This document shows positions 9,299 to 36,712 of a stretch of 64,000 bases of DNA, piece by piece. Each line of letters starts with the position of its first letter. Position 1 is the first letter of the stretch. The notes beneath the pieces were generated by a model. The model ran no database searches. It saw only the letters and a program-made list of their open reading frames with translations, and was not told the origin of the DNA. A program made the translations under genes and the position numbers. The stretch comes from Bacteroidota bacterium. Lineage in GTDB: Bacteria > Bacteroidota > Bacteroidia > Chitinophagales > BACL12. The stretch spans positions 1,247,199 to 1,311,198 of the forward strand of contig JADJJZ010000003.1 in the NCBI GenBank assembly GCA_016706255.1, in the 5' to 3' direction.

Positions 9299-10222
9299 AT
9301 GGCAAAAACTAATAAACACATATTATTTGGAAATAGGTTATTGCAATATTCTGCATTATCAGGTGCATTTATTTTAGGTAAGCCGGATCTTATATTTTCT
9401 GAAGTTGTTTACACAAATGTTGAACCTGATGTTGTGTTGGATGAAGATGATGAAGACTTTTTTTTGGACTTTAATGGTGACTTGGATAGTGATGTACATT
9501 TTTTAAATGTATCTAATTATTTTGAAGGTTATTGGACTTCCGGAAGCATTAATTACGTTTTTCCTACGGCGGAACAACGAATTAAAATTATGGCAATAGG
9601 AAATAGTATTGCAGGCAGCTTGGTAACTTATAGCACCTATTCTTCAGGAACAATACATAGAATATTTCCTTATGCTCTTGAAGAAGACCTAATTGATAAC
9701 GAATTGCAATTCCAAAATGCTTATAACCAATCCCTAAATTTCAGAAATGTTTATTATATTTTTGGAACGTATAGCAGTTACGGTGGAAACTGGTTTCCAG
9801 AATCAATAGACCATTATTTAGGCATTCGATTTAAAGATGCTGATGAAATTAAATATTACGGCTGGATTCGCTGCGATGTCAAGGATGACGGGCGTACCTT
9901 AGTAATTAAAGACTATGCATATGAAACTGAGCCCGATTATCCAATAATAGTGGGTGATACTACGCATTATGTTAACATCAATACCGGTGAAAATCAAATC
10001 GACGCCACTGCGTATAGTTTTGGTAAGGATATTTATGTCATTTCAAAAACATTTCAAAGTATTGAAATCAAAGTTTATGATTTAACTGGTAAGGAAATTA
10101 ATAATAGCCTGATGCAAAATAAAATGGAAATAATCGACATGTCTAAATGCGCTCCAGGAGTTTATTTAGTAAAATTAATTCAAGATAGTAGAACGTTTGA
10201 AAAAAAGGTGATTATTGGGTAA
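9299..10222 (+). CDS. T9SS C-terminal sorting domain protein (paralog of 3576..4472)
   Basis: Shares the block HYLGIRFKDADEIKYYGWIRCDVKDDGRTLVIKDYAYETEPDYPI. CTD-like end GVYLVKLIQDSRTFEKKVIIG. Confidence 0.7.
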   Translation: MAKTNKHILFGNRLLQYSALSGAFILGKPDLIFSEVVYTNVEPDVVLDEDDEDFFLDFNGDLDSDVHFLNVSNYFEGYWTSGSINYVFPTAEQRIKIMAIGNSIAGSLVTYSTYSSGTIHRIFPYALEEDLIDNELQFQNAYNQSLNFRNVYYIFGTYSSYGGNWFPESIDHYLGIRFKDADEIKYYGWIRCDVKDDGRTLVIKDYAYETEPDYPIIVGDTTHYVNINTGENQIDATAYSFGKDIYVISKTFQSIEIKVYDLTGKEINNSLMQNKMEIIDMSKCAPGVYLVKLIQDSRTFEKKVIIG

Positions 10223-10520
10223 ATCATTTGGGCAATTGGTTAAACTTAATTCCGGAAATCGAATTATATTTCAATGAGTTAGGTTAAAGACATTATTGTA
10301 ATTTACCTATTGATCCGTGAGCAGAAAAAATTTACTGTTAAAGGGGATTATTTATTACTACATTGACTTGATATCGGTCCGTGCAGCCTTAAAAAAAGTA
10401 AAAATATCCACACGGAATAAGTAAAATACACGCTGGAGGATAAGTAATTTTACTGGTTGAAGGAGCGGAAGTGTATTCGATTTTACAATTGATTTAAATT
10501 TGCTGCTAAGTAATGTTCTA

Positions 10521-10618
10521 TTGTGACATGGTAAAATGCATAAAATTGTCGTTTTGTAGGCTGTAAGCATCAATTATGTTATGTAATTTGTCCTGAAATG
10601 TGACATTTTTGGGATTAA
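10521..10618. repeat. conserved ~100-nt noncoding element, copy B
   Basis: Aligns with 5413..5510. It is covered only by a dubious 71-aa minus-strand ORF. Confidence 0.5.
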
Positions 10619-34248: not shown

Positions 34249-34590
34249 ATGGTAGATCTGACATATTTAACAAAGTTTGCGAAAAACAATCCGGTAAAAA
34301 TGCGGCGTTACATTTCGTTGTACCTTGAAGCAGCACCAAGCGCCTTTTCAGCAATGCAACGTGACCTGAAAGCCGAAGATTGGGAGCAACTGCGCATTAA
34401 CGCTCATTCATTAAAACCACAAGCCGATTTAATGGGAATTAATTCGCTAAAAGATGGTCTTATACAGATAGAAGATGCTGTAAAAAAACAGCAGTTTGAC
34501 AAAATCGAAAATCTGTTGAAATCATCACATGTCATTTCCCTGGCAGCAGAAGAAATATTAAAGGAAACGTTAAATCAATATCCGCAATAA
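34249..34590 (+). CDS. Hpt (histidine phosphotransfer) domain protein
   Basis: The start abuts the upstream stop. NAHSLKPQADLMG phospho-His motif; 113 aa. Confidence 0.8.
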   Translation: MVDLTYLTKFAKNNPVKMRRYISLYLEAAPSAFSAMQRDLKAEDWEQLRINAHSLKPQADLMGINSLKDGLIQIEDAVKKQQFDKIENLLKSSHVISLAAEEILKETLNQYPQ

Positions 34591-34950
34591 GAAAGTGACA
34601 TTTTAACGTTACACAAACAAGTACAACAAATTGCCCACAACAATAATTATTCGATTACCATAAGCCCAAATCCCAAAAAGCCGCTTGTAATCGAATAATT
34701 AAAACGATATACACATTATAAATACAAAATCATTTTTTTGGGAATAATATTTTAGTTCTGTTTCGAATTCAAATTTTTCGTGGTTAACCAATTACAGTAT
34801 AATCAAATATAAATTTGAATTCGAACCCATTAATTGTTTATCAAAAACCCAAAAAATCAATGGCCAACCCCAATTATCCCGACCGCAAATCGATTCGTTT
34901 AAATGGTTATGATTATTCAAAAAACGGGTTATATTTTATTACGTTATGTT
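34515..34950. repeat. direct repeat copy 1 (Hpt 3' end + spacer + RAYT 5' end)
   Basis: Near-identical to 35709..36085 except for an extra insert of about 60 nt. The offset between copies is about 1194 bp. Confidence 0.8.
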
Positions 34951-35099
34951 GATATGATCGCATTTGTATGTTTGGTGATATACAATTGGAAAAAAGTGTT
35001 TCGTTAAATGCGGATGGAAATAACAAACAGCAAATAATGATATTGAACAATCCGGGAAAAATTGACAACGAAAATATGGGGTCCTTGGCTTTAGGCTAA
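34860..35099 (+). pseudogene. REP-associated tyrosine transposase (RAYT) pseudogene
   Basis: MANPNYPDRKSIRLNGYDYSKNGLYFITLC, then an in-frame TGA, then YDRICMFGDIQL...ILNNPGKI. It is truncated before the HxH and catalytic Tyr regions. Confidence 0.6.
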
Positions 35100-35148: not shown

Positions 35149-35556
35149 CTACTCAATCTTAGTAGCATACAGATCTATGTAAAATGGCCCGAGGCCGGGT
35201 TGAAGATGGAAGTGTAGATCGGGGTTGGTAAATTCCAAACTTGGCTTCCATTCGGGGTCGTAGCCGGGATACTGGAATACTTCGCCGGTAAAGTAGAATG
35301 AATATGTTAAAGAAGTATATATGCTGTCATCTACTAGCACCTGATAAACTAAATCAACGATAGAATCCTCCTCGGATTTTTCCAGCGATAATGCATATAA
35401 GACTATGGTATCCGCTTCACTATAACTATATAGAGAACTCTCAACTTTGATTCCCGTGTATTCGCCACACACAACATCACGGTAGTCGTCATGGATATAA
35501 TCATAAGTGCAAGACGATAATCCGATAAGTAAAAACCACAAGATTAAATTTTTCAT
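35149..35556 (-). CDS. hypothetical lipoprotein
   Basis: The ORF is open to 35685, but the lipoprotein signal MKNLILWFLLIGLSSC starts at 35556. Confidence 0.55.
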   Translation of the reverse strand: MKNLILWFLLIGLSSCTYDYIHDDYRDVVCGEYTGIKVESSLYSYSEADTIVLYALSLEKSEEDSIVDLVYQVLVDDSIYTSLTYSFYFTGEVFQYPGYDPEWKPSLEFTNPDLHFHLQPGLGPFYIDLYATKIE

Positions 35557-35708
35557 AGTAGGAGAGATTGTATTGATAATATTTATCAAAGTTAATAAAT
35601 GCCCGTTAATCACGCAATATCTTATGTCACGCCGAAGTAATATTAGATGCTGAGAAGGAGGACCTTTTCGTATTACGTTTTTCACTGATATGCATGATTT
35701 TATTACTG

Positions 35709-36085
35709 ATTGACATCATCACATGTCATTTCCCTGGCAGCAGAAGAAATATTAAAGGAAACGTTAAATCAATATCCACAATAAGAAAGTGACATTTTAA
35801 CGTTACACAAACAAGTACAACAAATTGCCCACAACAATAATTATTCGATTGCCATAAGCCCAAACCTACCAAAGCCGCTTACAATCGAATAATTAAAACG
35901 ATATGCACATAATAATTACAATATCATTTTTTTGGAAATAATATTTTAGTTCGGTTTGAATTAAATATTTTTCACCAAAATCCCAAAAAAATGATGTCCA
36001 GCCAAAATCCGAATGCCCGCAAATCGGTCAGATTAAAAGATTACGATTATGCACAAAATGGGTTGTATTTTATTACCATTTGTTG
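35709..36085. repeat. direct repeat copy 2 (duplicated Hpt 3' end + spacer + RAYT 5' end)
   Basis: Contains a second copy of the last 23 or so codons of the Hpt gene without the rest of that gene. Confidence 0.8.
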
Positions 36086-36128
36086 TTACAAAGGAATTTG
36101 TTATTTCGAAAAATCCCATCCCAACTCC

Positions 36129-36154
36129 GTAGGGGCCGACCCATGTGTCGGCCC
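36129..36154 (-). repeat. REP hairpin inside the RAYT ORF
   Basis: GGGCCGAC-CCATGT-GTCGGCCC. Its reverse complement, GGGCCGACACATGGGTCGGCCCCTAC, equals the intergenic REP at 44381 except for one compensated base pair. A half copy lies at 36188..36201. Confidence 0.75.
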
Positions 36155-36351
36155 TGACGAAAATGCCCATGCGAACGACCACAACAACCCATGTGTCGGC
36201 CAAAACCTAACCATTCAATTAAACGATGCCGGAAAAATGATTGAAAAATGGTATTATAAATTGCCTGAAAAATTTCCGCATGTTAAATGCCATGAAATGG
36301 TGGTAATGCCAAACCATTTTCATTGTATTATTCAAATTGCCGGTTCCGTTC

Positions 36352-36373
36352 GGGCCGACACGCGGGTCGGCCC
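36352..36373. repeat. second GC-rich hairpin inside the RAYT ORF
   Basis: GGGCCGAC-ACGCGG-GTCGGCCC, encoding RADTRVGP. Confidence 0.7.
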
Positions 36374-36629
36374 CGACAGGGCATCATTACCTACGATTAT
36401 GCAATGGTTTAAAACAATGTCAACCAATGAATATATTCGCGGCGTTAAATTATATAACTGGAAACCATTTTATAAAAAAATTTGGCAACGCAATTATTAC
36501 GAACACATCATCCGTGATAAACAATCCTATCTAAATATCACCAATTATATATACAACAATCCCGCGAAATGGAAATTTGATCGATTTAATGATAATAGAT
36601 TGAGGCGATGAAAATTATACGAAACATTT

Positions 36630-36712
36630 GGGCTAGGGATTGAAGCGTAAACCCCGCAGACCGCTTTTTCAGCGGGCGAGGAGTTGCAGCGTAAAGCCCG
36701 ACCCGGCGCGGG
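36630..36712. repeat. GC-rich interspersed element, copy 1
   Basis: GGGATTGAAGCGTAAACCCCGCAGACCGCTTTTTCAGCGGGCGAGGAGTTGCAGCGTAAAGCCCG aligns with 44660..44740. Confidence 0.6.

Follow-up and report, generated by a model that had tools for sequence, protein, structure and literature searches.

The locus described here raises the question of why a transposase gene should contain, within its own reading frame, hairpins of the kind that its protein family binds and cuts. The window, i.e., the whole 64,000-nucleotide (64-kb) stretch that was analysed from contig JADJJZ010000003.1, belongs to a Bacteroidota lineage that is uncultured and rich in AT; it encodes a REP-associated tyrosine transposase (RAYT; REP, repetitive extragenic palindrome), and two GC-rich hairpins, hereafter S1 and S2, lie inside its gene. 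The explanation that we prefer, to which we assign a probability of roughly 0.8, is that both are cognate REPs residing in two permissive loops of the protein: S2 at a position that is ancestral or a hot spot in the family, where the insertion has collapsed, and S1 as a lineage-specific addition that was expanded by slippage, with the pairing of the stems kept by selection or by exchange. This explanation builds on the observed identity of the gene and of the hairpins, their positions, the covariation of their stems, their enrichment within genes and the dynamics of their copy number. The features on which it depends are the following.

35991-36611, plus strand: RAYT (TnpA-REP) gene, 206 amino acids, predicted TnpA-Y1 subclass 2.4 (RAYT Group 4)
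36129-36154, plus strand: S1 REP, a GTAG foot (36129-36132) followed by GGGCCGAC-ccatgt-GTCGGCCC at 36133-36154
36140-36203, plus strand: 48-nt coding tandem unit consisting of the loop, the 3' arm CCCATGTGTCGGCCC and a spacer, 1.3 copies
36188-36201, plus strand: half copy CCCATGTGTCGGCC, read from the window sequence
36348-36377, plus strand: S2 hairpin, GGGCCGAC-acgcgg-GTCGGCCC at 36352-36373, with GTTC on the 5' side and CGAC on the 3' side
44381-44406, reverse orientation: intergenic REP 1, GGGCTGAC-acatgg-GTCAGCCC and a CTAC foot (44403-44406)
44463-44488, direct orientation relative to REP 1: intergenic REP 2, GGGCTGAC-acattg-GTCAGCCC and TTAC

The open reading frame (ORF) at 35991-36611 is predicted, from its sequence and its modelled structure, to encode an HUH/Y1 RAYT of TnpA-Y1 subclass 2.4, an assignment that was based on its motifs, on its sequence and fold matches to the structure 4ER8 and on the names of its homologs. 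This subclass was described by Quentin et al. 2018 (BMC Genomics 19:475, PMC6006769), corresponds to RAYT Group 4 of Bertels et al. 2017 (PMC5581495), and is characterised by the motifs NH[IFV]H, WQ and YIxNNP, by a median length of 194 amino acids and by its abundance in Cyanobacteria and Bacteroidetes, with scattered occurrence elsewhere (PMC6006769). All three motifs were found in the window protein: the HUH motif MPNHFHCI at residues 106-113, the WQ pair at W165-Q166 and the Y motif Y186-IYNNP. The residues H109, H111, Y186, W165 and Q166 are intact and invariant in the alignment of the homologs (A1). The only sequence match in the PDB was 4ER8, the TnpA-REP of E. coli, in which VVLPEHMHCI aligns with VVMPNHFHCI and WQPRFWEHAIR...YIYINP with WQRNYYEHIIR...YIxNNP, so that W165/Q166 and Y186 of the window protein align to W94/Q95 and Y115. 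The AlphaFold2 model (pTM 0.70) had 4ER8_A as its top Foldseek match (E 6.6e-5, probability 1.00), followed by the TnpA proteins of IS608, ISDra2 and IS200, as befits the HUH/Y1 fold. More than 7900 homologs were retrieved, several of which bear the name 'REP element-mobilizing transposase RayT' in their sources; no exact match of the window protein is on record. Both curated family models scored below their cut-offs, Pfam Y1_Tnp slightly (E 2.4e-4, 21.6 bits compared to 23) and NCBIfam REP_Tyr_transpos, 'REP-associated tyrosine transposase', more so (E 9e-17, 61 bits compared to 80), which illustrates how REP inserts push members of the family under such thresholds.

As the earlier note on this DNA had read directly from the sequence, the RAYT ORF contains two hairpins with 8-bp stems and a half copy, all of which are in frame. 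S1 has a 6-nt loop, is in the forward orientation, codes for VGADPCVGP and is located in the turn that joins strand beta1 to helix A. S2 codes for VRADTRVGPD, its feet (GTTC and CGAC) are decayed, and it is located in the loop that leads from the HUH strand (beta3) to helix C; in the AlphaFold2 model, strand 109-116 precedes it and helix 133-155 follows. The model assigns no secondary structure and a pLDDT below 50 to residues 46-60 (S1) and 121-126 (S2). The contrast with the AT-rich surroundings that the earlier note described is pronounced: the GC content of the window is about 35% (0.32-0.40) compared to 82% in the hairpins, and the GC3 of the hairpin codons is 0.81 compared to 0.37 in the remainder of the gene. 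The perfect GTAG foot of S1 and the CTAC foot at 44381 mark these two as GTAG-class REPs, which is only partially the case for S2 (GTTC/CGAC) and the REP at 44463 (TTAC). Folded as single-stranded DNA (ssDNA), S1 reached -12.1 kcal/mol (z -4.4) and the intergenic REPs -8.7 (z -3.3) and -8.9 kcal/mol (z -4.7); the z of S2 was weak (-10.6 kcal/mol, z -1.5) because its local context is already GC-rich. No Rfam family matched within the hairpins themselves at the gathering threshold.

The reverse complement of S1 with its foot, GGGCCGACACATGGGTCGGCCCCTAC, is identical to 44381-44406 save for a paired C>T / G>A change, just as had been claimed. A further claim, that the similarity extends about 15 nt into the flanks, did not withstand local alignment against random 40-mers of the window, as beyond CTACGGA the flanks scored no better than these (fraction as high 0.04-0.8). 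The flanks of the two intergenic REPs are alike (score 16-17, which 0.0005 of random 40-mers reach), and the REPs at 44381 and 44463 are parts of one 82-nt direct tandem unit. That such hairpins are chance GC-rich palindromes or an artefact of the assembly has a practically negligible probability. The pattern GGGCYGAC-N6-GTCRGCCC, with up to two mismatches, was matched four times in the 64-kb window compared to 0.01 expected, twice within the RAYT gene and twice between genes (44381-44402 and 44463-44484). A census of perfect GC-rich hairpins over the whole 64 kb (stem of at least 7 bp, loop of 3-9 nt) returned exactly those four, and when one stem mismatch was permitted no further REP-like site appeared in the window. 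Moreover, identical hairpins are present in independent ENA, NCBI, JGI and Logan assemblies, which together with the number of matches refutes both chance and artefact.

The single compensatory change was taken in the earlier note as an argument for selection on structure. One pair in two plus two copies proves little by itself, but an alignment across genomes supplied the evidence that it could not. Scanning one genome per GTDB species yielded 80 loci from Bacteroidota, Chloroflexota, Proteobacteria (including Francisella), Verrucomicrobiota, Omnitrophota and others, none of which exceeded 49% identity to the window RAYT, and 63 intact genes were used. In these genes S2 typically contains the forward REP GTAG-GGGCAGAC-ctgcgt-GTCTGCCC, usually translated in the frame VGADLRVCP, and, after a spacer, the reverse REP GGGCGAAC-acatag-GTTCGCCC-CTAC, usually translated as GEHIGSPLH; other frames of the REPs (RRGRPMCLP and GRTHRFAPT) are occasionally translated. 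The alignment of S2 was anchored on codons and protein and hence was not selected for hairpins. The VGADxxVCP block was found in 50 of 64 genes, in the same columns and frame, and 48 of these have at least seven of the eight Watson-Crick pairs, with 14 different stems among them. Across the 45 distinct rows, 98.1% of the stem cells are paired compared to 83.6% after shuffling, a value that none of the 500 shuffles reached, and five of the eight pairs have changed on both sides (50 cells). The covariation score was 0.423 compared to 0.142 when shuffled (0/500), while slid controls were paired to 31-58%. The covariation statistics that the earlier note had called for support pairing. Pair 5, the one that differs between the internal and intergenic copies of the window, is the most variable stem pair in the family as a whole.

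The same alignment bears on the possibility that VGADxxVCP and GEHxGSPLH are conserved protein features, e.g., a metal-binding or interaction loop, and that the hairpin is a by-product of their codons. It is true that these peptides recur at the same position in most homologs. However, the residues vary together with the opposite arm of the stem, and the pairing is always restored: Ala encoded by GCA is accompanied by Cys TGC, GCG by Arg CGC and GCC by Gly GGC, and swaps of Asp/Val, His/Val and Asn/Val act in the same way. At one position, the choice among Cys, Arg, Gly and Ser thus reflects which synonymous third base is present in the Ala codon on the other side of the stem. The Gly codon ends in G in 44 of the 45 rows and the codon at the Asp position ends in C in all 45, AT-rich genomes included. 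The same hairpins also occur in non-coding DNA outside genes, the loops are predicted to be disordered, other REP frames are used and some family members have no REP at all. In addition, the combination that the earlier note had named as fatal to its own proposal, i.e., the peptide without the hairpin in unrelated homologs, was not encountered; the peptide is shared across phyla, always with hairpin potential. Because the amino acids follow the pairing of the DNA and the synonymous third bases are fixed, a conserved peptide with an incidental hairpin was ruled out as the primary feature, and we regard any version of it as very improbable. Rather, a DNA hairpin that is under selection or is homogenised dictates the protein sequence.

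Two observations on individual genomes are worth mentioning. In Francisella philomiragia ATCC 25015 (L080, gene 9980-10600), the S2 doublet is kept with a perfectly paired stem of lower GC content, its forward element GTAG-GGGTCAAC-ctatgt-GTTGACCC being translated as VGVNLCVDP and its reverse element as GEHAGTPLH; it was missed by the GC-filtered census and shows the covariation in an AT-rich gammaproteobacterial genome. Two Imperialibacter species (L056 and L060) have the same G:T wobble in the forward stem of S2 (GGGCCGAC / GTCGGTCC), which indicates that an imperfect hairpin can be inherited across species and argues against rapid homogenisation in that lineage.

The two insertion sites differ in their distribution across the family. 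At the protein level, 114 distant homologs were parsed between conserved anchors, from YFITIC.. to LNDAG for S1 (107 parsed) and from the HUH motif to QWFK for S2 (105 parsed). The S2 segment has a median of 49 amino acids and a range of 25-124 in the parsed distant homologs, and contains the forward-REP peptide A[DNH]xxV[CRGS]P in 89 of the 105 homologs, the reverse-REP peptide of the GEHxGSPL type in 84 and both in 70, with other members having the forward or the reverse REP alone. The spacers between the REP peptides are hypervariable and often tandemly repeated. These findings align well with those of Quentin et al. 2018, in which the unique feature of subclass 2.4 was a variable in-frame insertion of REP sequences and short repeats into the loop between beta3 and alphaC, modelled as peripheral (Figures S6, S7B and S10; PMC6006769) and 'generally' placed in the stretch that separates the HuH motif from the Y motif. 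The S2 hairpin of the window has this feature, and the claim that a REP of the gene's own class lies in frame in a loop that tolerates it agrees with that work. It occupies the column and frame of the VGADxxVCP block in the 50 genes mentioned above and is not a fresh insertion, its place in the family being either ancestral or a hot spot. Five members (L054, L055, L074, L013 and L030) have S2 loops of 11-17 amino acids without any REP, which means that the insert is not essential, and the heterogeneous content of S2 fits a hot spot with turnover.

In the window, the S2 segment has 21 amino acids and is the shortest seen. Its loop, ACGCGG, is of the type of the reverse REPs (loops acatag, acgcag and acgcgg), and in homolog L005 the same S2 loop type stands between two intact feet (GTAG ... 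CTAC). The reverse-type loop, the comparison with L005 and the minimal length suggest, by analogy with 'double foot' REPs, that S2 is a collapsed inverted REP doublet. For 'double foot' REPs, recombination between palindromic stems was proposed as the route (PMC6006769), and such recombination may likewise have reduced the doublet of the window lineage to one hairpin with a reverse-type loop, mutated feet and 21 residues. If so, S1 and S2 would be inverted relative to each other. In fact S1, with its forward loop, and S2, with its loop of the reverse type, are in inverted arrangement 219 nt apart, and 36129-36160 is complementary to 36346-36377 over about 30 nt, including the stems and five of the six loop positions. 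When 301 nt were folded as a single strand, S1 paired with S2 instead of forming the local hairpins (z -4.95). The two can also be regarded as an inverted pair that resembles a REPIN, whose 'spacer' is the coding sequence from helix A through the HUH strand, with the HUH motif included.

S1 has a narrower history. Its basal length is 14 amino acids in 62 of the 107 homologs; it is extended in the other 45, at least 17 of which have recognisable REP peptides. The window segment has 42, so that the insert amounts to about 28 residues, close to the 30 or so that had been estimated. Five close relatives (L081, L082, L085, L086 and L087), which are short metagenomic contigs or contigs of metagenome-assembled genomes from ENA, NCBI, JGI and Logan assemblies, have 91-99% protein identity and 94-98.5% nucleotide identity over the gene, and the same Peptidase_S15 gene follows the RAYT gene in four of the five, the fifth contig (Logan, L087) ending just past the gene. 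A constant neighbour would fit the single-copy, vertically inherited (domesticated) gene expected for subclass 2.4, to which a truncated paralogous pseudogene 1.1 kb upstream stands in contrast. Among them, S1 varies solely in the copy number of the 48-nt unit: the motif of loop and 3' arm, with a period of 48 nt, is present once in L085, twice in the window, L081 and L086 (the second cut short), three times in L087 (the last cut short) and five times in L082. The half copy at 36188-36201 is the beginning of a second 48-nt unit, and since the relatives contain this unit in varying copy number, the half copy is a remnant of tandem duplication, which arises most simply from slippage. The window gene illustrates a coding minisatellite that was born from the arm of a REP. 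The stems of S1 and S2 are identical in all of the close relatives (0/32 stem columns variable, compared to 53 of 597 ungapped columns, or 8.9%, over the whole gene); with P ~0.05, this invariance is too weak as proof of selection in situ. In L081, a GGGCTGAC REP lies about 7.6 kb downstream (at 9243) and is syntenic with the one at 44381 in the window, which indicates that the internal C:G and the external T:A variants have coexisted for some time.

Taken together, these observations are consistent with the following course of events. The in-gene hairpins would be GTAG-class REPs, the kind of ssDNA hairpin that is bound and cut by the RAYT family, and would have become embedded in frame at two surface loops, probably by RAYT-mediated insertion. 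S2 appears to be the standard site of the family, in which a forward REP, a hypervariable spacer and a reverse REP follow each other, while S1 would be an additional REP of this lineage that kept its perfect GTAG foot, and replication slippage on its 3' arm may have produced the 48-nt coding minisatellite, the half copy included. Two circumstances would make such inserts tolerable: the loops are disordered and lie at a distance from the surface used for catalysis and DNA binding, and the REPs leave every reverse frame and two forward frames of the three open. Pairing is presumably preserved in the nucleic acid itself, whether through selection or through exchange that recurs between the gene and the pool of REPs, and the amino acids follow.

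The distribution of hairpins inside and outside the homologous genes is where this explanation has to be weighed against its most serious competitor, in which the in-gene REPs are not tolerated passengers but functional cis elements, be it a master copy that links enzyme and substrate, so that a transferred gene seeds a new REP population, an autoregulatory ssDNA site or an mRNA structure that limits translation. We consider such a function unlikely, albeit with several observations in its favour. REP-like hairpins occur at 2.29 per kb within the 63 genes, 0.41 within 1 kb of them and 0.033 beyond, so that the density inside the genes is approximately 70-fold that found at distances above 1 kb; at many loci no external REP was seen within 10 kb. 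The codon position, frame and orientation of S2 are shared by 50 of 64 genes from various phyla, 98% of its cells are paired and the synonymous sites are fixed; neither internal stem varies between the window and its relatives, and both differ from the intergenic variant; and S1 and S2 are able to pair over about 30 nt in the 301-nt fold. On the other hand, REP-free S2 members exist, one of which (L055) is still flanked on both sides by GGGCCGAC REPs. The content of S2 is heterogeneous, with forward and reverse elements, doublets, arrays and various frames, as would be expected of turnover rather than of a fixed element. Furthermore, G:U cells (10) and unpaired cells (7) were similarly frequent in the covariation alignment, which gives no signal of selection at the RNA level either way. 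The idea in the earlier note that the hairpins act in cis on the gene's own DNA or mRNA was thus neither supported nor excluded, although the REP-free members mean that such an action cannot be essential.

At the 26 loci that have both internal and external REPs, at least one internal 8-mer stem was identical to an external one in 18, compared to 12.3 +/- 1.8 in permutations, of which 4 of 2000 reached 18; for rare stems only, there were 6 matches compared to 2.1 permuted (1 of 2000). In the window itself, the situation is less favourable to our explanation. No REP was found within 1 kb outside the gene, the nearest being 7.8 kb away and having T:A instead of C:G, and thus the cognate status of the in-gene REPs in this genome is a deduction. 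Even with one stem mismatch permitted, there is no REP-like hairpin within 7.7 kb outside the ORF, so the REPs within +/-1000 nt that go with subclass 2.4 are absent; it should be added that such REPs were reported for 'the large majority' of its members, not for all (PMC6006769). A purely passive passenger would account less readily for the near-universal position, frame and orientation of S2 and for perfect stems at loci where no external REP was seen over 10 kb, which leaves room for function. The collapse of the S2 doublet has the loop type and the 'double foot' analogy as its sole grounds, and the cleavage of in-gene hairpins by subclass 2.4 RAYTs is putative. It is feasible, though in our judgement quite unlikely, that RAYTs of subclass 2.4 maintain the in-gene REP pair as a master copy or cis element, a reading that fits the roughly 70-fold in-gene density, the pairing across phyla and the invariant internal C:G compared to the external T:A. 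If a master copy were maintained, the enzyme and its hairpin would be co-inherited, and the REP population could be re-seeded after horizontal transfer or after the loss of the external copies; in the case of a cis element, the enzyme could sense or cut its own gene. The covariation, the near-universal occupancy of S2, the approximately 70-fold enrichment and the REP-free members could help REP/RAYT biology to decide whether such REPs are passengers or functional.

The phenomenon itself has been published, and the window gene is a clean example of the hallmark of subclass 2.4. It shares with this subclass its motifs, a near-median length, the REP insertion between beta3 and alphaC, its occurrence in Bacteroidetes, a low REP copy number, REPs of the GTAG type whose foot has three G-C pairs, and the 'double foot' variant. 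It differs in the additional S1 REP upstream of the HUH motif (beta1/alphaA turn) with its 48-nt minisatellite, in having no flanking REP within 1 kb and in the decayed feet of S2. Bertels et al. 2017 found only low-abundance flanking 16-mers for Group 4 (PMC5581495), which fits the sparse REPs of the window. For uvrA, dnaE and others, in-frame REPs of the GTAG and CGTC classes were described by Di Nocera et al. 2013, who did not deal with REPs inside RAYT genes (PMC3733652). There, as with the palindromic elements (RPEs) of Rickettsia, palindromes lie in frame in tolerated regions and add 20-30 amino acids to conserved proteins, or more in the case of clusters; in the window, however, the host gene is that of the cognate transposase and the site is conserved throughout the subclass and not sporadic. 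The S1 insertion with its minisatellite, the covariation figures and the comparison of density inside and outside the genes go beyond the main text of PMC6006769, PMC5581495 and PMC3733652 and were not found in the literature searched, and a search on REP-encoded peptides (ADLRVCP, GEHVGSPL and others) returned no paper.

The TnpA-REP of E. coli (subclass 2.2; 4ER8; Messing et al. 2012, PMC3479197) resembles the window protein in its HUH/Y1 fold, in its GTAG-footed, GC-rich hairpin substrate and in the WQ...EH..R residues by which the GTAG guide is read and which are conserved in the window protein, but the identity is only about 17% over the Foldseek structural alignment. Moreover, the REPs of E. 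coli and their mosaic arrangements (BIMEs) have longer, bulged stems and are strictly extragenic; they flank the gene (REPtron) and none is inside it. With the REPINs of Bertels and Rainey 2011 (PMC3116915), the family S2 shares a forward and a reverse REP with a spacer, and in the window S1 and S2 are inverted and can pair. In contrast to REPINs, the stems usually differ between the arms of the S2 doublet (GGGCAGAC and GGGCGAAC), the intergenic pair at 44381 and 44463 is in direct and not inverted orientation, and mobility as a unit is putative.

REP repeats are generally described as species-specific, and their sharing across genomes is unusual. A scan of metagenomes with GGGCYGACACATNGGTCRGCCC nevertheless indicated, among the matches listed (contigs L088-L207 among them), that this REP type is very widespread. 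These contigs were mostly high in GC and unrelated, and none of the matches listed was clearly of the window lineage. The exact REP GGGCCGAC-ACATNG-GTCGGCCC-CTAC was observed, among the matches listed, in contigs with a GC content of 35% to 72%, which means that near-identical REPs are common to very different genomes; in the high-GC contigs listed, a forward GGGCGGAC REP very often stands before it.

The surroundings of the gene contain four further features.

34860-35099, plus strand: truncated RAYT pseudogene, the N-terminal ~75 codons with an in-frame TGA at 34950-34952, without a hairpin
36626-36707, plus strand: match to Flavo-1 RNA (RF01705), 38.8 bits
44191-44321, minus strand: match to Flavo-1 RNA, 42.9 bits
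44641-44732, plus strand: match to Flavo-1 RNA, 36.7 bits

The pseudogene, which had been cited as having a short loop at the S1 position, is real, truncated and 72% identical at the nucleotide level, but its S1 is about 12 amino acids above the basal length and hence is not simply 'short'. It lies 1.1 kb upstream of the RAYT gene within a segmental duplication, the direct repeats of which are 92% identical in one part (34516-34779 and 35710-35973) and 72% in another (34833-34967 and 35967-36101). The 92% stretch (264 nt) comprises the 3' end of an HPt-domain gene and the region upstream of the RAYT gene, while the N-terminal coding part of the RAYT is the one with only 72%; the adjacent duplicated segments (34516-35099 and 35710-36101) have thus diverged unequally. 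A lipoprotein-like ORF on the minus strand (35149-35685) lies between the two copies.

The gathering threshold of Flavo-1 is 42 bits. The match at 36626-36707 begins 15 nt past the RAYT stop codon, and the two intergenic REPs have one of the other matches on each side. In the match at 44191-44321, the apical loop is enlarged by an insertion of 67 nt that contains short repeats of the TGGTACAT / CACATT type, which recur at 44521-44570, and Flavo-1 here behaves like a dispersed repeat that is co-located with the RAYT gene and the REPs. Elsewhere in the window, ARAGORN reported two adjacent tRNAs (8682-8755 and 8760-8833) as 'tRNA-???' with the four-base anticodons cttt and cttg; Rfam recognised both as normal tRNAs (56 and 62 bits), and the unusual anticodons are probably an issue of loop parsing.

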